Shown here: positions 32,891 to 43,418 of the stretch, one piece after another
Layout: the number at the start of each line of letters is the position of its first letter
How positions within the stretch are numbered: the first letter of the stretch is position 1
IMG/VR virus record: IMGVR_UViG_3300030330_005745
Span: 1-64,000 of that record
DNA from: a virus
Lineage: Duplodnaviria; Caudoviricetes
Length of the DNA: 64,000 bases
Reading direction: 5' to 3' (one strand)
Notes under the pieces: generated by a model
Told to the model about the DNA's origin: nothing
What the model saw: the letters and a program-made list of their open reading frames with translations, nothing else
Databases searched by the model: none
Made by a program: the position numbers and the translations under genes

Positions 32891-32919
32891 TGAGATAGTT
32901 TGATAAGTTGTGCTTATGT

Positions 32920-32959
32920 ATGGGACTTACACAGCGTCTGCACCCGCGCTGATGCCCAT
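32920..32959 (-). ncRNA. CAU/WGUAAGU internal-loop hairpin, copy 1
   Basis: AUGGG-CAU-CAGCG...CGCUG-UGUAAGU-CCCAU. Confidence 0.65.
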
Positions 32960-32962
32960 CAA

Positions 32963-33424
32963 TCAATCCATGTACTTACTTTCAATCCTTTCTACATAAT
33001 GCATCGTTGCTTCTGCAATAAACAATGAAATATTTCCTTGATAATGTTCTTCATTTAAAAACGAAGCAGCTTCTTTAATTCTTTTCTGTTCTTCTTCAGT
33101 GAATGCAACACCTACGGCACCAGGTACCGTCTTGGGAGTGTATTCGTTTTTGACATAAGCAGGATTATCTTCCATCCATCGTTCGATGTCTGTGCGTTTG
33201 AAATAAAGGTTACGTCCACTCTTCATCAAAGGTTTTGGAAAGAGTCCGGACTTTATCTTTCGGTGGATTGTGTACCGACTGACGTCAAGCTCATCCATTA
33301 CTTCTTGCATGCTCCAGCGGTCCTTACATTCTTTTAAAGTTTTGACTGGACCAGTGGAATAGGTGTTGGAGTTTGCCCATTCCTTTTCATTAGCCAGACG
33401 TCTTTTTGCTGCTTGGGGTGTCAT
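32963..33424 (-). CDS. AlpA/excisionase-like winged-HTH regulator with a C-terminal ribbon-helix-helix-like segment
   Basis: WSMQEVMDELDVSRYTIHRKIKSGLFPKP...FKRTDIERW; start placed at MTPQAAK. Confidence 0.8.
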   Translation of the reverse strand: MTPQAAKRRLANEKEWANSNTYSTGPVKTLKECKDRWSMQEVMDELDVSRYTIHRKIKSGLFPKPLMKSGRNLYFKRTDIERWMEDNPAYVKNEYTPKTVPGAVGVAFTEEEQKRIKEAASFLNEEHYQGNISLFIAEATMHYVERIESKYMD

Positions 33425-33473
33425 TGCAGTAGCGGTTGTTACAGGTGTGTAAAGGAGAGGTAAGATAAAGGAA

Positions 33474-33522
33474 CGTTCACCTCTATCTTGGAGGCGCAAC
33501 CAACTGATCCACGGAACGGGGG
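33474..33522 (+). promoter_or_regulatory. Glutamine-II (Downstream-peptide) riboswitch
   Basis: CGUUCACCUC...GAGGCGCA...GGAACGGGG with CGUUC/GAACG and CCUC/GAGG pairing, upstream of a YRG peptide. Confidence 0.85.
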
Positions 33523-33545
33523 ACAGTCTTATGCGGAGAACCAAA

Positions 33546-33692
33546 ATGAAACTCGTCTATCGCGGAGTTCCATACGAGCGCAAGGAAGCTTTTACCAGCT
33601 ACCTGTGTACTCAAAACCTCAAAGTCCAACGGGCTGAAGCGGAGAAAGAGCACGATCGTCGCAATAATAGCAAGAAAGAAATGATCGTTTGA
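33546..33692 (+). CDS. DUF4278-family peptide (48 aa)
   Basis: Hand translation MKLVYRGVPYERKEAFTSYL...KKEMIV; LxYRGVxY signature. Confidence 0.85.
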   Translation: MKLVYRGVPYERKEAFTSYLCTQNLKVQRAEAEKEHDRRNNSKKEMIV

Positions 33693-33712
33693 CGGTTGTT
33701 ACACTGTTAGAT

Positions 33713-33738
33713 AGGCTGCCTCCGGGTGGCCTTTTTTT
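33713..33738 (+). terminator. Intrinsic terminator after the DUF4278 peptide
   Basis: AGGCUGCC-UCCG-GGUGGCCU stem plus U tract. Confidence 0.8.
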
Positions 33739-33891
33739 ATGGACAAAGAAGAACTGAAAGAAAAGATCATTGAATTGATTGAACAAGACATTGAAGATGG
33801 TGAGGTGTTGCCTCACTATGGTTTGATTGCGGATTGGAAGATTCGGTACATGGATCTAGCTAAGCTGATCTGGCAGTACCTCCACGTTTGA
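33739..33891 (+). CDS. 50-aa hypothetical protein
   Basis: Hand translation MDKEELKEKIIELIEQDIEDGEVLPHYGL... Confidence 0.5.
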   Translation: MDKEELKEKIIELIEQDIEDGEVLPHYGLIADWKIRYMDLAKLIWQYLHV

Positions 33892-33893
33892 AC

Positions 33894-34145
33894 ATGCTCA
33901 CGTCATTTATATCTTTAGTGTTGGCATCCGTAATGTGGGTACAGGTGCCGCAATGGGAGAATGACTGGTCCAAATGTGCAGTTGATGTACCTGATGTGGG
34001 TTGTCATTGGTACATCGTTAATCCTGACAATACCTTTGGTAAGGGATTTTCCTGGGAGAATGCCCCATGGTTCAGCGCCGAGGGTCTCCTTGATGTCTCA
34101 AAGTTGGAGAACACCATGTTGACCCTCCAAGGCAAAAAAGACTAA
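33894..34145 (+). CDS. Small exported Trp/Cys protein, cyanophage type
   Basis: Signal-like N-terminus; WVQVPQWENDWSKCAVDVPD...CHWY. Confidence 0.7.
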   Translation: MLTSFISLVLASVMWVQVPQWENDWSKCAVDVPDVGCHWYIVNPDNTFGKGFSWENAPWFSAEGLLDVSKLENTMLTLQGKKD

Positions 34146-34322
34146 CTATTCCACATGCTTCCATGTCCTCCGATGGACGATAGCACTGATGGCGTTTTGG
34201 CTCATACCAGTTTCTTTTGCAAGTGAATAAATAGTTCGTCCCTCTGCTCTTTTCTTACGAATGTCTATAACATTTTTTTCAGTAAGAATTGAGCGTCCAT
34301 TCTGTTCTCCTACTGTTGTCAT
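34146..34322 (-). CDS. Stand-alone HTH (HNH C-terminal-type DNA-binding domain), 58 aa
   Basis: Hand translation MTTVGEQNGRSILTEKNVIDIR...LAKETGMSQNAISAIVHRRTWKHV; ATGA overlap with thyX. Confidence 0.7.
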   Translation of the reverse strand: MTTVGEQNGRSILTEKNVIDIRKKRAEGRTIYSLAKETGMSQNAISAIVHRRTWKHVE

Positions 34323-34972
34323 TTCTTGAATGCAACCTCTGCAATGGTGGGGAGCTTTTCAGTAAAGATAGTCTTGCAGCCTTCAGCGATATCCTTATGT
34401 TCTTTCTGTGTGCCGTTGCCTGTACGTAATTGGATGTAGTGAATCCAACTGCGGAGAGTCCCGCACATGTATAAACGAGTAGGTGTTGCCAATGGAAGAA
34501 TTGCCCTGGCACATTCTTTAGCTACACCGTCGCTAATCATTTGGCTATAAAGATCCTCAGCCATACTGAAGACGTTTGCAATCTTGTCTTCATAGCAAGC
34601 ACGTTGCCAGTCTGACAAGTTGTCAACGCTGTTCTGCCTGTTCTTGAGATCTTGTGTTCTTAGTTCAGGCATTTCTGCACCACCAAGTTCTTGGGTGCTG
34701 GCGTAGCGTTGTGAAAATTCCTGGAATGTGAAGGACCTATGCCTCAGCAACTGAGGTGAAATTGCTCTGGTTGTGTTGATCTCAATGCACATTGATGCCA
34801 TTTCAAATGGTGACCAATGCTCGTGATCAATGAGATAACGAATCAAACGTGGAGCTGTCAAGTTGTTGTCTTGATTGGAAGGGTTGCTAACCCTTGCCAT
34901 CATCGTGATCAGTTGCTCTGCCAGGGGTGTGACCCAGACAAGCTTGGTGAGCGGGTGCAGATTTTGATTCAT
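34319..34972 (-). CDS. thyX: Flavin-dependent thymidylate synthase
   Basis: HWSPFE, RHRSFTFQEFSQRY, ARAILP, RSWIHYIQLR. Confidence 0.96.
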   Translation of the reverse strand: MNQNLHPLTKLVWVTPLAEQLITMMARVSNPSNQDNNLTAPRLIRYLIDHEHWSPFEMASMCIEINTTRAISPQLLRHRSFTFQEFSQRYASTQELGGAEMPELRTQDLKNRQNSVDNLSDWQRACYEDKIANVFSMAEDLYSQMISDGVAKECARAILPLATPTRLYMCGTLRSWIHYIQLRTGNGTQKEHKDIAEGCKTIFTEKLPTIAEVAFKK

Positions 34973-35307
34973 TAGGCAGCACGATTGTAGTCGTCATCAA
35001 GACGTTCAATGTCGGCCTCAGACAGGTGAGAGCCCCGTTGAACCTCGATGATGCCAAGTCCCTCTGGGCCTGCTTCTGCACGATGTACGGCATTCTCAGG
35101 CACAAAGAGAGTGGTCCCTGGAGCAGCTGGAGTAACAGTGTTACCGCAGGTGAGTTTACCGGATCCTTGAACGATTACCCAATTCTCAGAGCGATGCCAA
35201 TGGCGTTGCAGACTGATGCGTTGGTTCGGATGAATCCAAATCTTTTTAACTAAAAAACCTTCGCCTGTTTTTATGGTTTCAAAGTATCCCCAAGGACGTT
35301 TTTCCAT
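34972..35307 (-). CDS. Cupin, type II mannose-6-phosphate isomerase C-terminal domain
   Basis: RPWGYF, VKKIWIHPNQRISLQRHWHRSENW, IEVQRG, DIERLDDDY. Confidence 0.88.
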   Translation of the reverse strand: MEKRPWGYFETIKTGEGFLVKKIWIHPNQRISLQRHWHRSENWVIVQGSGKLTCGNTVTPAAPGTTLFVPENAVHRAEAGPEGLGIIEVQRGSHLSEADIERLDDDYNRAA

Positions 35308-35612
35308 TACAGCTTTACATCGCTGTAATAATTATCCATGGTGTTACGGTAATCATCAACAACCTTTTCAATGTTTTCAGCAGCACAAAGGCGCATCTGA
35401 TCTACTTCAACAGGTTGTTGGAGATGATCCCATTTGACTTGAATGAACTTCCGACGGCGCGTACCAGTCCTGGTCTTTTGTGTTTTAAGAATCAGATCAG
35501 TGACGGTACCGAAGCGTTGACCCATGTTGATCGAAGTCATCTTGGGTTTGTCTGCAACGCGTTCACCCACTTGGAAACGAAAAGTGGGGTCAAATTTTTC
35601 TTGACTAGGCAT
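35307..35612 (-). CDS. Hypothetical protein (SH3/KOW-like)
   Basis: FQVGERV...GTVTD...IQVKWD. Confidence 0.6.
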   Translation of the reverse strand: MPSQEKFDPTFRFQVGERVADKPKMTSINMGQRFGTVTDLILKTQKTRTGTRRRKFIQVKWDHLQQPVEVDQMRLCAAENIEKVVDDYRNTMDNYYSDVKL

Positions 35613-35925
35613 TGGTTTGAGGAATGGTGTCGAGGTGGAGGTTTTCTAAAGCGAGCAGCGTTGCTGTTGTGCCAAGGATACGAAAAGCATCCTCAATTAA
35701 TTCATAGTTGTTTGACTCGTTGTTGTAATAATCGTTGAGGATTTTTTCAGCCTGCTCAAACCCCCCTGGGTCACCAGTGAGTCTGGTCAGGATGACACTA
35801 GACATGTTGTCCGTAAACATCTCTGAGAGTTTTTTACGGACGACAGGCCACGTCCATGATGGAACAAGATCAATGACTTGATGAACAAGTTGAAGATCTG
35901 TTAACGAGTGTTCGTGTGAAATCAT
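35605..35925 (-). CDS. Hypothetical protein
   Basis: Start placed at MISHEH, just after the hairpin/U tract. Confidence 0.6.
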   Translation of the reverse strand: MISHEHSLTDLQLVHQVIDLVPSWTWPVVRKKLSEMFTDNMSSVILTRLTGDPGGFEQAEKILNDYYNNESNNYELIEDAFRILGTTATLLALENLHLDTIPQTNA

Positions 35926-35926
35926 G

Positions 35927-35950
35927 AAAAAACCCCGGGTGTACCGGGGT
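35927..35950 (-). terminator. Terminator-like hairpin abutting a start codon
   Basis: ACCCCGG/CCGGGGU stem plus U tract, then C-AUG. Confidence 0.7.
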
Positions 35951-35971
35951 CGATGCTCTCCCCGTGCCAGG

Positions 35972-36331
35972 TTAGGCAGGGGTTGCTTCAGTTTCAACTA
36001 CTTCTTCAAGCATTCCTGACTCTTGAAGTTTGTCGAGCATGGCAACCATGATGTTGGCATTCTCTTGGGTCTTTTCCATGAAGTGTTTGGCTTTTTCTGC
36101 AGTGATGCTGTGAACGCAGCCATTGTCTTCGATGAAGACCCATGAGCCATCTGGTTGTGGCTTGCCCTTCTCCAGTGCCCAACGTTCGCAATTGCGGATA
36201 TATTGGATCTGGAGGTTGTGTGAGTCAGTCAGACCACGGTCGTCGATCCAGGTGAGGCCGACGTTGTACCGAGTGTCTTCGTCTTTGAAGCAATGAGGCT
36301 GAGGAAGAAACTGTTTGAAAGCTCCTAGCAT
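35972..36331 (-). CDS. Hypothetical protein
   Basis: Start placed at MLGAFKQF, downstream of the tRNA. Confidence 0.6.
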   Translation of the reverse strand: MLGAFKQFLPQPHCFKDEDTRYNVGLTWIDDRGLTDSHNLQIQYIRNCERWALEKGKPQPDGSWVFIEDNGCVHSITAEKAKHFMEKTQENANIMVAMLDKLQESGMLEEVVETEATPA

Positions 36332-36351
36332 TGTCTTGTGTAGGTTTGGTT

Positions 36352-36440
36352 TGGTGAGAGTGGTGGGACTTGAACCCACATAGCCATTACTGACTGACAG
36401 ATTTTAAGTCTGTTGCGTCTACCAATTCCGCCACACTCTC
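36352..36440 (-). tRNA. trnL: tRNA-Leu(UAA), with encoded CCA
   Basis: GAGAGUG/CACUCUC acceptor stem, GGUAGAC D-arm, ACAGA-CU-UAA-AA-UCUGU anticodon arm, long variable arm, GUUCAAGUC T-loop, ACCA end. Confidence 0.95.
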
Positions 36441-36444
36441 AGGT

Positions 36445-36481
36445 CTAGGACTTACACCACCCTTGGCTTGTGGATGCCTAG
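36445..36481 (-). ncRNA. CAU/WGUAAGU internal-loop hairpin, copy 2
   Basis: CUAGG-CAU-CCAC...GUGG-UGUAAGU-CCUAG, 4 nt before the tRNA 5' end. Confidence 0.65.
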
Positions 36482-36485
36482 CTGA

Positions 36486-38276
36486 TCAGGACTTTAGTTG
36501 TTCCTCACGGACGTGCAACGCTTCCTTGAATGCATGTTCAACATTGGAACGTTCAACATCATCAAGACGTTTGTTACCTACATCCGCAATTTGAACAACG
36601 CTCATCACACCGTTGTCAACCGTTAGTTGAATGGTGTAACGAGGTTTGTTCTCGATCATGCACAAGATGATGAGATGTTTCATCTTCTTGATTCCTTCTG
36701 CATATCCATGTCCACCACCAACGCAGTTACGTACGGCACGGCCCCACGCAGCAAGTTGGTGTGTGTCATGCGGTTGGAAGAACGAGAAGTAACCATCGCC
36801 AGGTAGGGTGCCTGACTGTGTGTGGTTGATTACATCGTTGAAAGGGATACGCATGGGGTTTGGAAACAATTTCTGTGGTAGATCAATGTTGGGGTTGGTG
36901 ATCTTCCAGGTCTCTGCCATGAGATGGTCATGCCATTCCTGGAGACGCCAACGCTTTGGCTTGATGTTGTCGAGCCGACCGGATGCAATGCATTGGGTCA
37001 GCATCTGATAGGTATCACGCCAAAGATGGAAGTAAATATGTATGTTGCCTGTCTTACTATCTGTGCTGATGTATTCTCTTTCTTCTAGTTCACGTTGGTA
37101 ATACGTGTGCATCATGTTGAGGTATGACTCAACAGGAAGATTGTCACGCATCCATTGTTTACCTGTATCACTGTGATAACCAGGAAATTCACAGCAACGC
37201 AACCAGTTGTACCTGGAATGAAGCAGGTTTAGATCCATGTCACGATAAATAGCTTTAACGTGATGCATTGAATCAATAAACTGATTAAGAATTGCATACG
37301 GTCTGACAAGAAGCCTGACATCATATTCATCTTTTTCAGTTTCTTCTTCATGGATGGCAAAGGTATCTTTCATGGCTTGTGCCACCATTGATCTAAACCA
37401 TTTAGCGGACCACACATCTTCTAACCAAGGACCACTCCAACGTTTACGTAATAGATCAATAATGGTATCAACATCGTGAACATAATCATCGCCTCCAGAC
37501 AACCACTTAGGCCTTGAATAAGACCCCGACATAATTTTTGTGAAGGTACAATTTGCTGGGTTCAAACGTTTGAAATAATGAGCATTATTATTGCCGATAA
37601 ATGTAGGGATACCTTTAAGTAATTCTGCTTGCCATTTATTAATAGCCTTTGAAATTTCATGAGTAGCACCCCAGGTGTTGATGCGATGAGTTTCGGTTAC
37701 TTTCCTCCAATAACTACCGGTGTAACCATCAACAAACTCATCTTTGGTAAAGAATAAAGTTTTGCGATACCAGAAGGTACGGCCATCTTTGATGCGTGGG
37801 AGCATGTCATCTTGTGTGCCATGCACATGATCAAACATTCCTTTATTGACATAACTGCCTTTAGCAATAAAACGTTCATCGCATTGCTTACGTGCTGCAG
37901 CTGTATCTTTGAAGGTAAAGCTAAGGCCATAGACATAGCCATCATCTTTACGTCGTGGTATCCAGGCAGCAACCCACAGTTGTTTGTGGTAGTAAATAAC
38001 TGCCACAGGTTTAGGTTCTTCACCGAAGACAGGCTTGGTAATTAGGTGTACCTTTCCTTGTTTGACAGACTTTGAATTGATGTTGTCAACAACTTCGTTC
38101 CAAGTTCTGTCGTTGACGATGTCAGATGGGATAAGGTTCGAGGGCCTGCCGTTGGGATGTGTATTCTTCTTTTTGGCTTTGCGATCTTCTGCAGCCATGA
38201 CAGCTGCAAGTTTCTTGCGGGTTTGGTCATAGCCTGCAACTTCAAGTGCAAGCTGATCGGGGAGATTGAAATGCAT
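36486..38276 (-). CDS. PcfJ-domain protein
   Basis: C-terminal QLAAWGRAVRNCVGG...YTIQL...QIADVGN pattern. Confidence 0.75.
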   Translation of the reverse strand: MHFNLPDQLALEVAGYDQTRKKLAAVMAAEDRKAKKKNTHPNGRPSNLIPSDIVNDRTWNEVVDNINSKSVKQGKVHLITKPVFGEEPKPVAVIYYHKQLWVAAWIPRRKDDGYVYGLSFTFKDTAAARKQCDERFIAKGSYVNKGMFDHVHGTQDDMLPRIKDGRTFWYRKTLFFTKDEFVDGYTGSYWRKVTETHRINTWGATHEISKAINKWQAELLKGIPTFIGNNNAHYFKRLNPANCTFTKIMSGSYSRPKWLSGGDDYVHDVDTIIDLLRKRWSGPWLEDVWSAKWFRSMVAQAMKDTFAIHEEETEKDEYDVRLLVRPYAILNQFIDSMHHVKAIYRDMDLNLLHSRYNWLRCCEFPGYHSDTGKQWMRDNLPVESYLNMMHTYYQRELEEREYISTDSKTGNIHIYFHLWRDTYQMLTQCIASGRLDNIKPKRWRLQEWHDHLMAETWKITNPNIDLPQKLFPNPMRIPFNDVINHTQSGTLPGDGYFSFFQPHDTHQLAAWGRAVRNCVGGGHGYAEGIKKMKHLIILCMIENKPRYTIQLTVDNGVMSVVQIADVGNKRLDDVERSNVEHAFKEALHVREEQLKS

Positions 38277-38298
38277 GATGTTGTGTAGGTATGAGAAA

Positions 38299-38326
38299 GG
38301 GGCAGTTTAGTGTCATGCCCAGGACA
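38299..38326 (-). ncRNA. Pseudoknot leader motif, copy 4
   Basis: UGUC-CUGGGCAU-GACA-CUAAAC-UGCCC. Confidence 0.75.
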
Positions 38327-38332
38327 TTTGAG

Positions 38333-38590
38333 TCAGTCTAGATACCGATCGGATGTGTCAATGACTTTCCAGTTAAGGTCAAGATCATCAACGTAACGGA
38401 GGAAAGCAGCTCCATCGTGGGGGAATGGTACCTCTGGATCAACTGCAAAGCTTGCTTCGCATAGTGCCGGGCCGTATTCAGCAGGTTCAAGCATAGTTTG
38501 TGCATGGACAAGAACCATGTCTTCAACCGTTGCTTCCACATAGACACGTTGATCGTCAAAGGTAGTTTCATGGATTGAGATAACAGCCAT
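38333..38590 (-). CDS. Early hypothetical protein
   Basis: 85 aa, acidic; EPAEYGPALC. Confidence 0.65.
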   Translation of the reverse strand: MAVISIHETTFDDQRVYVEATVEDMVLVHAQTMLEPAEYGPALCEASFAVDPEVPFPHDGAAFLRYVDDLDLNWKVIDTSDRYLD

Positions 38591-38853
38591 TAGTTGATCT
38601 GTTTGCGAACGGTCAGATGTTTGACCATGGCATAACCCATGGAATGAATCGATGAATCCTTCGATGCAAAGATCCCATTGGGACCATACTCCTCAAAGTA
38701 TTCTTCGAAGGCATCAATGATGCGTTGCCTGTTGCTCATGTCTGCAGTTCTGTATGCAGCCATAAGTTTTTGAGCAAAGCCGCCACCGTAGGTTTCGATG
38801 CGTTGGACAGTTGCTTCGATCGTTGGATCGGTAGGTGTGAGCTTGTTGAGCAT
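38590..38853 (-). CDS. Early hypothetical protein (YGGGF motif)
   Basis: IETYGGGFAQKLMAAYRTADMSNRQRIIDAF, a pattern common in small phage proteins. Confidence 0.65.
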   Translation of the reverse strand: MLNKLTPTDPTIEATVQRIETYGGGFAQKLMAAYRTADMSNRQRIIDAFEEYFEEYGPNGIFASKDSSIHSMGYAMVKHLTVRKQIN

Positions 38854-38861
38854 GAGTTGAT

Positions 38862-39059
38862 TTAGAACAGTTTGATGTTGCGCTTGGACAGGCCAGTGCC
38901 CGGGATTCCAACGGAACCACGGACACCAGACCCACGAACATTCATTGTGAACAAGAATGGTCCAAGCTTGATTGATTTGCTGAATGACTTCACACCACGT
39001 TCAGTGATGTTGAAGCCACCGACAGTTTTGTCGAAGTTGAATGCAGATCTTTTAGTCAT
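38862..39059 (-). CDS. DUF4236-like small basic protein
   Basis: FSKSIKLGP...SVGIPGTGLS. Confidence 0.7.
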   Translation of the reverse strand: MTKRSAFNFDKTVGGFNITERGVKSFSKSIKLGPFLFTMNVRGSGVRGSVGIPGTGLSKRNIKLF

Positions 39060-39393
39060 TTAGTGGAATACTTTTGCGTTTAAATGGTTCAGTCCAGGGA
39101 GTACGATGATCCATGTAAATAATGTCATCGGTATGTGAGGTGACGTCACCTTTGTAAGCTTTGAAGAAATAACGATCAGCTTCTTTGTACTTTGGTACAA
39201 AACAAGACTCACTGGCAAATTCCCAGTCAGCAAGCTGACAACAAAGCTCTTCATAAACTTCAAAAGGATCTTGTCTTTGATCTTGGAACTTTTGATTCCA
39301 AGCGTCAAAATCCCCCCTGGTCATTACAGCTTCTTCAATAATTGGAACAAGTCTGTAATGAACAAGAGTTACAAGTTCTTGTTTGTCTGTCAT
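39052..39393 (-). CDS. Early hypothetical protein
   Basis: 113-aa ORF in a coupled run. Confidence 0.55.
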   Translation of the reverse strand: MTDKQELVTLVHYRLVPIIEEAVMTRGDFDAWNQKFQDQRQDPFEVYEELCCQLADWEFASESCFVPKYKEADRYFFKAYKGDVTSHTDDIIYMDHRTPWTEPFKRKSIPLND

Positions 39394-39680
39394 TGTTTGT
39401 CGGGATTGAGAGCGTCAGGCAGGATGTACCTTGGATCATCCTTTTCCATGTTCGACATAACGAACACTTCTCCTGTATTTGGATCAAGGAATCCACCGAT
39501 GAATCCTGCGCCGCAAGAGTCAGCTTTTTCCCTGAGTTGTGCAGTGAGCTGCATCATGCGCAGCTTGGTGGACTGTGGAGTGTTGTCCGGTACAGCAGGT
39601 TGGTTTGGCATAGTGAAATCAGGTGTAGGAATGGTGAATGAATGAGCAGTGTAGGCGGTGGTTTCACCGATGATTAACAT
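39390..39680 (-). CDS. Early hypothetical protein
   Basis: 96-aa ORF (GFIGGFLDP); start uncertain. Confidence 0.55.
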   Translation of the reverse strand: MLIIGETTAYTAHSFTIPTPDFTMPNQPAVPDNTPQSTKLRMMQLTAQLREKADSCGAGFIGGFLDPNTGEVFVMSNMEKDDPRYILPDALNPDKQ

Positions 39681-39737
39681 AGAACTTTAGCTTTTCTTAA
39701 GGATGCCGAAGACAAAGGCCCCGACATCCCAAGGTAT

Positions 39738-39980
39738 CTACTTGTAATGCAGTTGTCTAGTCCTGTAATCCAAGACGCTTTCCGTCCATGTGGAATCAGG
39801 ATGATCAAGGACAGCACGGCGGGCTTTTTCGACGGCCTCTTCCGTGCCACCACAGTTCAACATCAATGCAACAGCAGTGTCTAGGTCTGCGAGCAGATGT
39901 GAGACAGCATTTGGAAGTCCACGGGGTATAGTTCTACCTTTCTGTTCGTAATACTCAGTGATGTAGTCAGGATAATCCAT
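39738..39980 (-). CDS. Early hypothetical protein
   Basis: 80-aa ORF. Confidence 0.55.
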   Translation of the reverse strand: MDYPDYITEYYEQKGRTIPRGLPNAVSHLLADLDTAVALMLNCGGTEEAVEKARRAVLDHPDSTWTESVLDYRTRQLHYK

Positions 39981-40196
39981 GAGATGAAGAAGAAAGATTG
40001 AAGGGTTATCTATAAGAACTAAAAGATATCTTGGTACTCTCCCTGCGGGGGTCCGGGGGGATTGATTCTTCTACTTCGATCAATCCCATGTTCTTACCTT
40101 CTGTATCAATCTGTGATGCCAGATGTCTTGCAAATGCACCACGTCTTCTTGGATTGAAGACTGTCTTCTTGGGCTTGTTTGTCCTGGGACGTGCCA

Positions 40197-40553
40197 TCAA
40201 ATTAAAGCGAGGATGGTCAGCCAACTATCGGGGTGGTCAGGTTCGACTTCATCGTCTGCCGGTGTTAAGCAGGTTGAATCGAGTGCCCACTCCTCGATTT
40301 CTCCGTTGGAAGGGACAGGGTACCATCCTTCGAGCGAGTCCTCGATGTTTTCTGGCTTCCAGTAACACTGGAGTTTGCCACTTGGGTCTTTGAAGACACA
40401 GCCCGTGATCGGGTGCGTGTTTTCGTCTTCTTGGTTGTAGAGGAGCGGGTCGTAGTTGACTTCTGCGGGGAACTGCTCTTGGCACTCCTCTTCTGTGAAG
40501 GGGACGTAACCGGTGAGTTCTTCTGCGATGCGTTTGGTTTCTGGATGAAGCAT
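40197..40553 (-). CDS. Acidic early protein
   Basis: 118 aa; EIEEWALDSTCLTPADDEVEPDHPDSWL. Confidence 0.7.
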   Translation of the reverse strand: MLHPETKRIAEELTGYVPFTEEECQEQFPAEVNYDPLLYNQEDENTHPITGCVFKDPSGKLQCYWKPENIEDSLEGWYPVPSNGEIEEWALDSTCLTPADDEVEPDHPDSWLTILALI

Positions 40554-40642
40554 GAGATCAACTCCGTGATGATGATTGAGATGATGACAATGATGTGCAG
40601 GATGACATCATCGTGTGTGTCATTCTTGGTGGTAGTCGGCAT
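40265..40642 (-). CDS. Overprinted ORF: N-terminal TM helix plus Ser/Thr/Lys/Arg-rich tail
   Basis: MPTTTKNDTHDDVILHIIVIISIIITELISCFIQ...; TM segment fills the gap between two genes. Confidence 0.4.
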   Translation of the reverse strand: MPTTTKNDTHDDVILHIIVIISIIITELISCFIQKPNASQKNSPVTSPSQKRSAKSSSPQKSTTTRSSTTKKTKTRTRSRAVSSKTQVANSSVTGSQKTSRTRSKDGTLSLPTEKSRSGHSIQPA

Positions 40643-40796
40643 CGCCTGCCACCTCCTCTGACATGAGTTCTTGCATGAGCTGTTCTTGCTCGTTGGCAAT
40701 GTCGTTGAGAACGAATTGCTGGTCTTGGGTGTACTCAGTTTTGACAGCATCGTTGAGACGTTGCTGGTCGAGTAGCCAGGTCTTGATAAGAGACAT
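40620..40796 (-). CDS. 58-aa acidic protein
   Basis: Hand translation MSLIKTWLLDQQRLNDAVKTEY...EEVAGDADYHQE. Confidence 0.6.
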   Translation of the reverse strand: MSLIKTWLLDQQRLNDAVKTEYTQDQQFVLNDIANEQEQLMQELMSEEVAGDADYHQE

Positions 40797-40819
40797 GATG
40801 TGAAATGGTATAGGTCAGT

Positions 40820-40846
40820 GAGTAGTTTAAGGACGTGCTCAGGTCC
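40820..40846 (-). ncRNA. Pseudoknot leader motif, copy 5
   Basis: GGAC-CUGAGCAC-GUCC-UUAAAC-UACUC. Confidence 0.68.
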
Positions 40847-41260
40847 ATTGGTCAGTCACTGTAGTGTTGTTTGAGTTTGTGATAATTGGCATTCACCCAC
40901 TCATCCAAGCCATACATGACGATTTGAATTGGATCTTGACCGGATAATTCTCCGAGTTCAATCAATCGATCCATTGTTCTTTGTGAATAAAGAATCTGCT
41001 GGAGAAGTTCGTTTGATTCAGTCATCGGAGTAGTCCGCGCAGATGATCTGGCACAGGACTTTACCCGGGAAGTTGTCGTGGAATTTGGCATAAGCTTGAC
41101 CGATAGTAGAACCACTGACCTTGTAGAAGTGTCGCGATTGCATCGGTTGCTCACCGACATCAGCTTGGTCGACGTACATGATTTCCCAATCGCGTACGTC
41201 TCCTTCCGGGCCAGGATTTAGTGATTGATACGGCATAGATTGTGTGCAACCACACACATC

Positions 41261-41518
41261 CTAGTCAGCCGTATGTCTTGTGATTGGAAGGTCATACTTC
41301 TCAATCAACATTGACTCAAATTGAGCCAATACTTTTACCTTGGAACCTTTGAAGCCGTACTCTTTCTTCACAGTTGAATACACACTGGGAAGGTTACGAG
41401 ACAGCTTCATGCCTTTGGTTTCAAGCAGTAAAGCTTTGTGGAGAGTGAGAAGTCTGAACTTGGAGGTGTCATCGCCAGTAATAACGAAGCCACCGTCGTC
41501 ATAGGTTTGAATAGCCAT
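41261..41518 (-). CDS. Early basic hypothetical protein
   Basis: 85 aa; LLLETKGMKLSR. Confidence 0.65.
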   Translation of the reverse strand: MAIQTYDDGGFVITGDDTSKFRLLTLHKALLLETKGMKLSRNLPSVYSTVKKEYGFKGSKVKVLAQFESMLIEKYDLPITRHTAD

Positions 41519-41519
41519 G

Positions 41520-41542
41520 AAAAAACCCGGCGTGTGCCGGGT
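41520..41542 (-). terminator. Terminator-like hairpin abutting a start codon
   Basis: ACCCGG/CCGGGU stem plus U tract, then C-AUG. Confidence 0.7.
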
Positions 41543-41566
41543 GGTAGTGTGTGAGTTAGTTGAAAG

Positions 41567-42010
41567 TTACACCGTTACATGACGCCATGCACGGTTCGCA
41601 TGGATGTTTGCAATGGTGTCTTTAGATACGCTGTAGCCTTGAGCAATGTCCATGTAAGCTTTGTGCTTACTGCCGTACTCTTTCATCATCCCTTGGTTGT
41701 TCAAGATCTCTTTGATCTCACGAACGTCAGACTCAGAGAGCTTGGGGTTACCACGACGGCCAGTCTTGGAGTCGTTGGTGATTTTGGACACCAGCATCTT
41801 GACTGGTGCAGAGGGATGAATTTGTTTGGTGGTGTCTGGTGCCTCGATCAGATCTGCGATTGGTGCTGCGAGAGCAAACTTCAGATCCATGGTGCGTGCT
41901 CCCTTCTTAATGGAGAAGGTAACGCTGCTGTCATTGCTGATAACGCAGACGTGATCAGGGGTGGAGACGTTGATTTCGGACAAGTTGTCCATGGGATTTG
42001 TCGAGTACAT
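41567..42010 (-). CDS. Protein with a C-terminal HNH-associated HTH
   Basis: GNPKLSESDVREIK...IAQGYSVSKDTIANIHANRAWRHV. Confidence 0.7.
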   Translation of the reverse strand: MYSTNPMDNLSEINVSTPDHVCVISNDSSVTFSIKKGARTMDLKFALAAPIADLIEAPDTTKQIHPSAPVKMLVSKITNDSKTGRRGNPKLSESDVREIKEILNNQGMMKEYGSKHKAYMDIAQGYSVSKDTIANIHANRAWRHVTV

Positions 42011-42095
42011 GCAAAAGATAGTGAGTCTTGGGAGTAAAGCAACCCCTGCTTACGAGCTGTTGTAATAGTGATGGGCGCAAGCAGGGGGAGGGGGT

Positions 42096-42290
42096 CTACT
42101 GTGCGAGATAGCTGATATGGATGCAGTATTTGGCATCACCCAGGAAAGACTTGTAGGTCACAAGTCTGTGGTAGTCAGCCATTCGTTTGCATGTTGCCGT
42201 TTCATGGGCGTTCATGGCTTTCTGCCCCACAATGACGAGGAGAAAACCAAGACCAGCACCAAGAAGGACGGCGGTTATGGGCTTAGTCAT
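42096..42290 (-). CDS. Small membrane-anchored early protein
   Basis: N-terminal TM helix, 64 aa. Confidence 0.6.
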   Translation of the reverse strand: MTKPITAVLLGAGLGFLLVIVGQKAMNAHETATCKRMADYHRLVTYKSFLGDAKYCIHISYLAQ

Positions 42291-42319
42291 GAGCTAGTGA
42301 CTGTTAAGAAAAGATTAAG

Positions 42320-42728
42320 CAGGATGGTGAGTCCTGCAGAGAAGGCCCGAAGGCCCTCAGTGCAGAAGTCAATCAACTGACCGTAGAACTTCAATGATCC
42401 AACGACAAGTCTTTGCTTTGTCGAGATCAATTGCTTCATCTATGAATTGATAGTCATACCATTTATCATCGACACAGAAATCGATGCATCCACTTTTCAG
42501 ATGAGCTCTTGGAATGTTCTTCCAATTTGATTCTTCATTTACATTGATAGAAAAGAATGCAAACAGAACACCACATTTAGAAACTTGTAGTTCAAAATCT
42601 TCATCAAAGGCATTGATCCATTCAGTTTGTCTAATAACTTCTTTGAGAGAGCCACGGGTCATGAGATGCTTTGCAATGTAATACAGGATGTTGAGTCCTG
42701 CAGAGAAGGCCCGAAGGCCCTCAGTGCA
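42320..42728 (-). repeat. Two 45-nt direct repeats (1 mismatch) forming UUCG hairpins and flanking one gene
   Basis: CAGGATG(G/T)TGAGTCCTGCAGAGAAGGCCCGAAGGCCCTCAGTGCA at 42320-42364 and 42684-42728. Confidence 0.9.
42369..42662 (-). CDS. AT-rich early hypothetical protein between the repeats
   Basis: Start placed at MTRGSLKE, 97 aa. Confidence 0.6.
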   Translation of the reverse strand: MTRGSLKEVIRQTEWINAFDEDFELQVSKCGVLFAFFSINVNEESNWKNIPRAHLKSGCIDFCVDDKWYDYQFIDEAIDLDKAKTCRWIIEVLRSVD

Positions 42729-42732
42729 AGAG

Positions 42733-43131
42733 TCAGAGACTTGCCGCTTGTTCAGGCGTAAGCTCTTTGGAGAACGGTTTGTCGGCCTTGGGTTGTGGCT
42801 TGGAGCCAAAGATGTACTGCTGCACGGTCATCTGCAGCTCTGGCTTTTGGAGTGGCTTTAGCTCATCGTCCTTCATGTAGAAGGCACGGATTGCTTTGAT
42901 GCGACCCATGAGTGTCAGCTCCTGACCGGTCTGCAGGTTGCCGTTGCGGTATGCAGTGAGCAACCCATTGCTGTTGGTGAAGTGAACACATGCAGTAATC
43001 TCATCACTGAGATTGGTGTACACCTTGACAGACAAGAAGTTCTGGTCGTTGTACTCAACCTCTTCGAGATTGGCAACACGACCGTGTACCGTCAGCTGTT
43101 GAGCGTCGGGATACTTGATGGATTCAGTCAT
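42733..43131 (-). CDS. Second SSB-like OB-fold protein
   Basis: LTVHGRVAN...LQTGQELTLMGRI pattern. Confidence 0.6.
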   Translation of the reverse strand: MTESIKYPDAQQLTVHGRVANLEEVEYNDQNFLSVKVYTNLSDEITACVHFTNSNGLLTAYRNGNLQTGQELTLMGRIKAIRAFYMKDDELKPLQKPELQMTVQQYIFGSKPQPKADKPFSKELTPEQAASL

Positions 43132-43220
43132 GGTTTGAACTGAGGTAGTGTGCTGGAGCCCATCCCAGCTTTGGGCAATAACTGCCGAAGGGTTTGCACC
43201 TTCGGACCCGCTTGTACGGA

Positions 43221-43358
43221 TCAGTTGGGTTCAATGAAGCGTGCAATCTTGCGACGCACGTCATTAGTTTTCCTGATCAATTGTTCCTTTGATCTGTCAT
43301 GCTGCAGCTTGTGTGCTGCTGCGATCAGACCGGAGGCAATGGTCTTGCGAATTCCCAT
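43221..43358 (-). CDS. 45-aa basic early protein
   Basis: MGIRKTIASGLIAAAHKLQHDRSKEQLIRK... Confidence 0.55.
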   Translation of the reverse strand: MGIRKTIASGLIAAAHKLQHDRSKEQLIRKTNDVRRKIARFIEPN

Positions 43359-43385
43359 GGTGAATAAAGAATCAGAATGAATGAT

Positions 43386-43418
43386 CTTGGACTTACTTGT
43401 GATACTCACAATGCCAAG
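43386..43418 (-). ncRNA. CAU/WGUAAGU internal-loop hairpin, copy 3
   Basis: CUUGG-CAU-UGUGA...UCACA-AGUAAGU-CCAAG. Confidence 0.65.

Follow-up and report, generated by a model that had tools for sequence, protein, structure and literature searches.

What is the role of a small hairpin that recurs three times on one strand of a phage genome, once directly before a tRNA gene and twice before protein-coding genes? The question is raised by the stretch analysed here, 64,000 nucleotides long and called the window below (positions 1 to 64,000 of the 82,948-bp IMG/VR record IMGVR_UViG_3300030330_005745, a virus of the Caudoviricetes). As reported below, the hairpin belongs to an uncatalogued, abundant and strongly covarying family, a putative RNA element of picocyanobacterial phages, and in one clade it adjoins the guide RNAs of the VIPR system.

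Three copies on one strand

All three copies lie on the minus strand. Copy 1 (32920..32959) is made of a 5-bp helix P1, the bases CA, a long P2 hairpin, GUAAGU and the closing strand P1′. Copy 2 (36445..36481) precedes a tRNA gene, and copy 3 (43386..43418) stands in front of the gene that opens the minus-strand early arm, within its leader. A covariance model trained on copies from other contigs, the window's own being excluded, gave scores of 31.4, 33.6 and 24.4 bits for copies 1, 2 and 3 respectively, and the next match in the window scored 11 bits. The pattern GGCAT-N8-30-GTAAGTCC found 3 matches in the window, versus 0.02 expected (100 shuffles); in the whole virus record it matched 3 times in reverse and 0 times forward, none of the matches lying beyond the three copies.

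An initial annotation, made from the letters of the window, had reported three minus-strand copies at these positions, with P1 and P2 stems that differ in sequence and keep their pairing, and both points hold for all three. The neighbours that it named are also the right ones. Copy 2 ends 4 nt before a tRNA-Leu(UAA) gene (36352..36440, minus strand; ARAGORN, and 62.9 bits with the Rfam tRNA model), which is the RNA directly downstream. Copy 1 is followed by a 29-nt G-poor, C/A/U-rich leader (32891..32919, minus strand) and the ATG of a GP88-family gene (PF17338; 32141-32890, minus strand). Copy 3 is followed by a 27-nt G-poor leader (43359..43385, minus strand) and the ATG of an open reading frame (ORF) for a basic, Arg/Lys-rich protein of 45 amino acids (aa), at the head of the minus-strand arm (43221-43358, minus strand).

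Both stems covary around a nearly invariant loop

In an alignment of 100 distinct sequences, P1 and P2 both covary, with 98.8% of the cells paired. Cells in which both partners had changed numbered 75, against 10.7 in shuffles, and none of 500 shuffles reached 75. Sliding the partner column, as a control, left only 20-60% pairing. The alignment was fitted to the model and came partly from a pattern that fixes P1, so the unbiased pairs are those of P2; these carry 19 and 26 double changes.

Between the stems, a 5′ CA and a 3′ GUAAGU are nearly invariant. The loop had initially been drawn as CAU facing WGUAAGU. Its conservation in homologues is confirmed, but its outline is not: the third base of CAU changes together with W (U.U, U-A, C-G, G-C and G.U; in copy 3 the N-N′ pair is U-A). 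These two bases therefore pair, and by this covariation the true internal loop is 2 x 6, 5′-C-R opposite 5′-R-U-A-A-G-Y. A fold in which CAU pairs with GU..G around an AA bulge was also considered, and is contradicted by the same covariation. Homologues that lose the loop consensus or the pairing had been named as evidence that would speak against the element; the homologues keep both.

P2 may be as short as 2 bp, closed by a stable tetraloop, or longer than 20 bp, and the distance between GGCA and GUAAGU goes from 8 to about 60 nt. In the commonest forms P1 has 5 bp and P2 2-3 bp; the smallest form is 26-28 nt long with two helices, and the two helices together may have no more than 7 bp. The folds are of modest stability (-7 to -14 kcal/mol, z-scores -0.8 to -2.5). 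This means that the case for the element stands on its recurrence and covariation, not on thermodynamic stability. With stability so ordinary, the invariant loop seems to be a core for recognition or catalysis and not a means of stabilising the fold.

A new family in phages of picocyanobacteria

Covariance-model and virome searches, which had been proposed at the outset, gathered 243 copies in distinct contexts from viral contigs. The 80 loci around GP88 homologues (63-100% identity) yielded 70 model matches, 69 of these on the gene strand. Complete relatives of the window's phage carry 1 to 6 copies each, all on one strand of one arm, and the orthologue of copy 1 is present in close relatives. 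A first scan of viral contigs, with a 14-base pattern, returned mostly chance matches (both stems were paired in 9 of about 118 loci), and a second one, with the commonest P1 as pattern, yielded at least 120 loci. Rfam 15, searched at a permissive E≤10 with positions 30-46 kb of the window, a canonical short copy and one of the VIPR stretches described below (vipr, element and guide RNA), gave no match at the element. We found no published description of the motif, and literature searches on the loop word and on PF17338 gave nothing relevant. We conclude that the motif is, on good support, a real, new and structured family absent from Rfam 15.

The DNA polymerase of the window is 66% identical to that of Synechococcus phage S-EIV1, and the window belongs to the S-EIV1 lineage. 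S-EIV1 itself carries two copies, at positions 41439-41475 and about 40729-40784 of its record, one of which scores 30.4 bits and lies 30 nt upstream of a gene start. Further carriers are a lineage near S-LBS1 and S-CBS1/3, fragments of T4-like cyanophages with tRNA arrays and the wcaG RNA, marine contigs having genes in common with the window, and a lineage near S-CBWM1, in which the element immediately precedes the major head gene. In this lineage a second covarying hairpin (L253:2846-2893 and relatives), which reads UGGUUGCAACCA alternating with UGUGUGCACACA, separates the element from the Shine-Dalgarno sequence of that gene. In the regions checked of the isolates S-H38, S-RSM4, Sf-CH11, S-CBWM1, S-LBS1 and S-CBS3, the element was not found. 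Judged by their relatives or gene content, all the lineages that can be traced are phages of picocyanobacteria. An all-against-all comparison of the available fragments revealed no protein family common to all the element-bearing lineages.

The family is restricted to phages. Two scans of 185,579 cellular genomes produced one true copy, located on a 2.5-kb phage-like contig binned with a Melainabacteria metagenome-assembled genome. A covariance-model search of 101 Cyanobacteriota genomes added nothing further, with a model that is insensitive to long-P2 copies. A pattern search of 401 Cyanobacteriota genomes gave 32 matches, about the count of the reversed-pattern control, so that there is no enrichment; by eye, a canonical copy was seen among them only on the phage-like contig and in one other genome. 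Because matches in cyanobacterial genomes were no commoner than in the control, the hypothesis that the hairpin mimics a host RNA was rejected.

The element keeps a fixed distance to what follows it

The upstream stop codon is usually 2-8 nt from the element, most often 3-4 nt, a rule that is not universal. In the window, copy 1 starts 3 nt after the stop codon of an HTH_17 ORF (32963..33544, minus strand), and copy 2 starts 4 nt after that of a 596-aa ORF with a weak PcfJ-like match (36486..38276, minus strand); no ORF lies upstream of copy 3.

The downstream spacing rule is tighter. The place of copy 2 before the tRNA is kept in nearly all relatives, and in 17 relatives, those in which element and tRNA-Leu(UAA) were both mapped, the two stand 3-4 nt apart. 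In a second set the element stands 3-5 nt upstream of 20 of 30 tRNAs, one of the 20 being a tRNA-Asn in an unrelated 109-kb contig, and in the T4-like cyanophage fragments 4-6 nt separate it from the first tRNA of the array, a tRNA-Leu(UAG). The pre-tRNA position is the most conserved site of the motif. Where a protein-coding gene follows, the gap from element to ATG is 23-32 nt, and G makes up 4% of these leaders.

In one cyanophage clade the element abuts VIPR guide RNAs

VIPR, an RNA-guided system described only recently, consists of a RAMP-like Vipr protein and guide RNAs (vrRNAs) of 9-16 YNNGG repeats with a 3′ tail (preprint 10.64898/2026.04.26.720920). Some VIPR arrays are interspersed with hammerhead ribozymes between guide RNAs, with support from small-RNA sequencing (fig. 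S19 of the same preprint). The published vrRNAs have a conserved structured 3′ tail, no 5′ element is described for them, and the preprint does not mention cyanophages (10.64898/2026.04.26.720920).

All-against-all comparison showed that one protein adjoins the element in four otherwise unrelated contig groups. Searched against PDB, its profile hit the 'SUSP1 Vipr protein' (chain 36pp_D, E = 8e-35), and by this sequence match we identify it as a Vipr homologue; its predicted structure, with a predicted local distance difference test score (pLDDT) of 85.9, was not used. The order in the cyanophage clade is vipr, element, 10-23 pentamers and a tail hairpin. In 12 of 12 loci P1 is followed without a gap by the YNNGG tract, which is in fixed register with the element in 31 of 33. 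When loci were collected from Vipr only, the element being left unused, strict copies were present in 36 of 64 loci, 54 in sense and 0 in antisense orientation. Nearly all the remaining Vipr loci were found by eye to hold a copy with an imperfect P1 or one that overlaps the vipr stop codon. The Vipr loci collected here gave no match to an Rfam ribozyme.

Loci of this kind, with a Vipr homologue, 10-23 YNNGG repeats and a tail hairpin, were observed upstream of the head-tail joining gene in uncultivated relatives of the cyanosiphoviruses S-LBS1 and S-CBS1/3 (L299:3081-3970, L335, L041, L353 and about 60 more, L362-L425). In a Vipr subclade (L388, L400-L406 and L413-L423; the clade of L022), the last vipr codons overlie the element, and the UAA of GUAAGU is the vipr stop.

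One marine contig carries five copies in 1.3 kb, alternating with period-5 tracts and the tail hairpin, an arrangement that is that of a guide-RNA array punctuated by the element. In marine contig L117 (8440-9900, minus strand) the period-5 tracts have a constant UU instead of GG, and every array unit closes with a 6-bp hairpin; the loop of this hairpin, ACUUA, is the complement of UAAGU in the element. The UU array may represent a variant guide-RNA code, or a loop-loop contact. As for pairing between the loop and the leaders, ACUUA-like words were counted 4 times in downstream leaders versus about 2 expected, which is not significant.

The combination that would make the element a VIPR component, namely adjoining both vipr and a YNNGG guide RNA, is found in one cyanophage clade and not at the three copies of the window. 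The genome of the window has no Vipr and no GG-pentamer tract; we therefore consider the element a general device, not one specific to VIPR.

Comparison with known RNA and DNA elements

The closest parallel in position is the hammerhead. In VIPR arrays, hammerheads lie, like the element, where a vipr or vap gene gives way to vrRNAs and where one vrRNA follows another (10.64898/2026.04.26.720920). Small size, sense orientation, variable stems and an invariant core are common to the two. The element differs in having two helices instead of a three-helix junction, and the CUGANGA and GAAA core is not in its consensus; neither the hammerhead nor any other Rfam ribozyme model matches it. Hepatitis delta virus (HDV)-like theta ribozymes are reported to adjoin phage tRNAs (PMC10879173), and like the element they are small structured RNAs directly beside viral tRNA genes. 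Their fold and consensus are unrelated to those of the element, which lies 5′ of the tRNA.

The RNase III sites of T7 are intercistronic hairpins with an asymmetric internal loop, and once cut they leave the upstream mRNA with a hairpin cap and the downstream RNA with a defined 5′ end. The element resembles them in being an intercistronic hairpin with an asymmetric internal loop, but its helices, down to 7 bp, are too short for RNase III and its loop sequence is unrelated. A T7-type site, with about two turns of double-stranded RNA around the loop, was accordingly rejected on the common forms (P1 5 bp, P2 2-3 bp). CRISPR repeat hairpins are cut at the 3′ base of the stem by Cas6-type enzymes. 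Like them, the element stands immediately 5′ of a guide and is proposed to set its 5′ end, and the partner protein family is RAMP-like; unlike them, it is found with no Cas6, and also in genomes without Vipr. To our knowledge, Vipr has not been reported to cleave RNA. The lambda nut sites (boxB) are sense-strand hairpins in few copies, with conserved unpaired bases, near the early transcript start and after stop codons. The element, too, has few sense-strand copies, one of them near the early transcript start and others after stop codons, but it has no boxA-like partner, no N-like protein is common to its lineages, and its register with tRNAs and vrRNAs is not nut-like.

Several further candidates were tried and discarded. 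The three copies are not among the terminator-like sites, and a U-run is present in only 8 of the 243 contexts, which rejects an intrinsic terminator. A sigma-70-type promoter, whose two hexamers keep a spacing of 16-18 bp, does not allow a spacing of the conserved blocks of 8 to about 60 nt, and no promoter-like site was called at any copy. Kink-turns (tandem G.A), sarcin-ricin/loop E motifs (AGUA/GAA) and the 11-nt tetraloop receptor (CCUAAG/UAUGG) were compared by eye, by their consensus strands, and CA/GUAAGU fits none of them.

Discussion

How can these positions be explained together? The initial annotation had proposed an RNA-processing, stabilising or protein-binding element. This points in the right direction and is too broad to be tested; what it had missed is the cyanophage-wide family, the pre-tRNA place as its most conserved site and the direct abutment to VIPR guide RNAs. 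The reading that we favour, with a confidence slightly short of even, is that the hairpin is a signal for RNA punctuation or processing, by which the 5′ end of the RNA downstream is set. It would stand, on the sense strand, where coding sequence meets a functional RNA lying downstream, whether tRNA, VIPR guide RNA or the G-poor leader of a further cistron. The most likely mechanism would be an endonucleolytic cut at or near the 3′ base of P1, by which the downstream RNA would be freed and the upstream mRNA would keep the hairpin as its 3′ cap. The CA/GUAAGU loop would serve as the core for recognition or catalysis, with P2 as a variable spacer, and the cutting agent could be a host RNase, a phage protein or the RNA itself. 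Since hammerheads occupy the equivalent place in VIPR loci, and ribozymes are found beside phage tRNAs, processing is the most economical reading. No protein was found to be common to all carriers, and the hosts of those that can be traced are related, so that a host enzyme and self-cleavage would both fit. The two observations from which we infer that the element acts as RNA, rather than as single-stranded DNA, are its orientation on the gene strand and its spacing.

Several observations weigh against RNA punctuation. RNase P would in any case cut in front of a tRNA, which would make the element redundant there. Conserved flanking bases would usually be expected at a defined scissile site, and are missing at the 3′ edge of P1; some copies are followed by promoter-like or terminator-like sequence instead of a leader. 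The counts of wobble pairs on the two strands (14 G.U versus 9 A.C) do not distinguish RNA from single-stranded DNA. Finally, S-EIV1-like relatives have a conserved ORF of about 74 aa (L139-L215, about 220 nt upstream of tRNA-Leu) that runs across the pre-tRNA copy and into the tRNA; a cut there would give a non-stop mRNA. Third positions of this ORF vary synonymously, and its stop is a TAG within the tRNA gene; the element lengths in these relatives, 34 or 40 nt, keep the reading frame. The genome of the window lacks this ORF.

A bolder form of the processing scheme is that the hairpin is itself a new, exceptionally small (about 26-30 nt) self-cleaving ribozyme, the universal RNA separator of cyanophages, which would mature VIPR guide RNAs, phage tRNAs and single cistrons as hammerheads do in other VIPR arrays. 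We regard this as rather unlikely. Instead of being cut away, the hairpin could stay on the downstream RNA as a 5′-terminal structure guarding it against decay by RNase E or J, or, in VIPR loci, as a 5′ handle or a stop that sets the start of the Vipr filament on the guide RNA. Its flush, fixed-register junction with the first YNNGG repeat fits this, as do the published vrRNAs, with their structured 3′ tail and no described 5′ element (10.64898/2026.04.26.720920), and the location of copy 3 at the start of the window's early transcript. A retained cap would, however, be useless to a tRNA, whose leader is removed; simple 5′ protection needs no conserved loop, and the element is equally common in phages without Vipr. 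We give such a retained structure a real but minor chance. An operator for a trans-acting RNA-binding regulator, of phage or host origin, controlling translation or stability of the flanking genes in the manner of T4 RegA or of chloroplast PPR-type intercistronic caps, would account for unpaired bases that are invariant within variable stems, for the modest stability and for the constant 23-32 nt to the ATG, and the first gene after copy 3 does encode an Arg/Lys-rich protein of 45 aa. But homologues of this protein are confined to close relatives, for which reason it was also rejected as an N-like partner, no protein family was common to all the element-bearing lineages among the available fragments, and control of translation leaves the positions before tRNAs and vrRNAs unexplained. 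We consider an operator unlikely.

Spacings of 0 nt to the vrRNA, 3-5 nt to the tRNA and 23-32 nt to the ATG would also suit transcripts that start just after P1, with an extruded hairpin or single-stranded DNA serving as promoter or priming site. The wobble counts given above are compatible with DNA, and the early arm has fewer sigma-70-like promoter matches than expected (3 between 32000 and 44200, versus 17.3 +/- 4.5). A duplex promoter is nevertheless ruled out by the variable distance between GGCA and GUAAGU, and the carrier phages are too diverse for one special polymerase. In a check for N4-type promoters, DNA hairpins read by a virion RNA polymerase that the phage encodes, no T7-like RNA polymerase was found encoded (PF00940 had no match, but none was obtained in control genomes either), there was no giant ORF, and the largest ORFs scanned are otherwise assigned, to tail-fibre-like proteins, a primase-helicase and a glycosyltransferase. 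We hold a DNA-level signal to be improbable. Lowest in our estimate, and highly improbable, is a site of processive antitermination comparable to lambda nut or HK022 put, which would let the polymerase pass downstream terminators. Copy 3 is promoter-proximal, several copies follow stop codons as nutR does, and U-run terminator-like hairpins exist downstream, at 41542-41525 and 35951-35931. Antitermination would leave unexplained the exact vrRNA register and the 3-5 nt gap to tRNAs; complete relatives vary from 1 to 6 copies, and some copies belong to late structural modules, where a major head gene comes next.

The presence of the motif in S-EIV1, a cultured phage, makes these readings directly testable. 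Abutment to guide RNAs bears on how VIPR guides gain their 5′ ends in phages without hammerheads, and the recurrence of the element before tRNAs and between cistrons suggests a general means by which cyanophages cut or insulate polycistronic RNA. If a host RNase reads the loop, its specificity would be new; if the RNA cuts itself, it would be a new minimal ribozyme. In either case, the element could become a compact insulator part for cyanobacterial synthetic biology.

Other features of the region

Inside the minus-strand arm, a Glutamine-II riboswitch aptamer was detected on the plus strand (33471-33527; 47.5 bits for a gathering score of 33), followed by a 53-aa ORF (33531-33692) and a terminator-like hairpin (33713-33732). 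Because the HTH_17 ORF upstream of copy 1 overlaps this riboswitch, its 5′ part is probably over-called. The two U-run hairpins at 35951-35931 and 41542-41525 (both minus strand) are G+C-rich and end directly at an ATG (UUUUC-AUG), which makes them terminator-like sequences placed in gene leaders. Another terminator-like hairpin (43798-43777, minus strand) precedes a region of roughly 360 nt upstream of copy 3.

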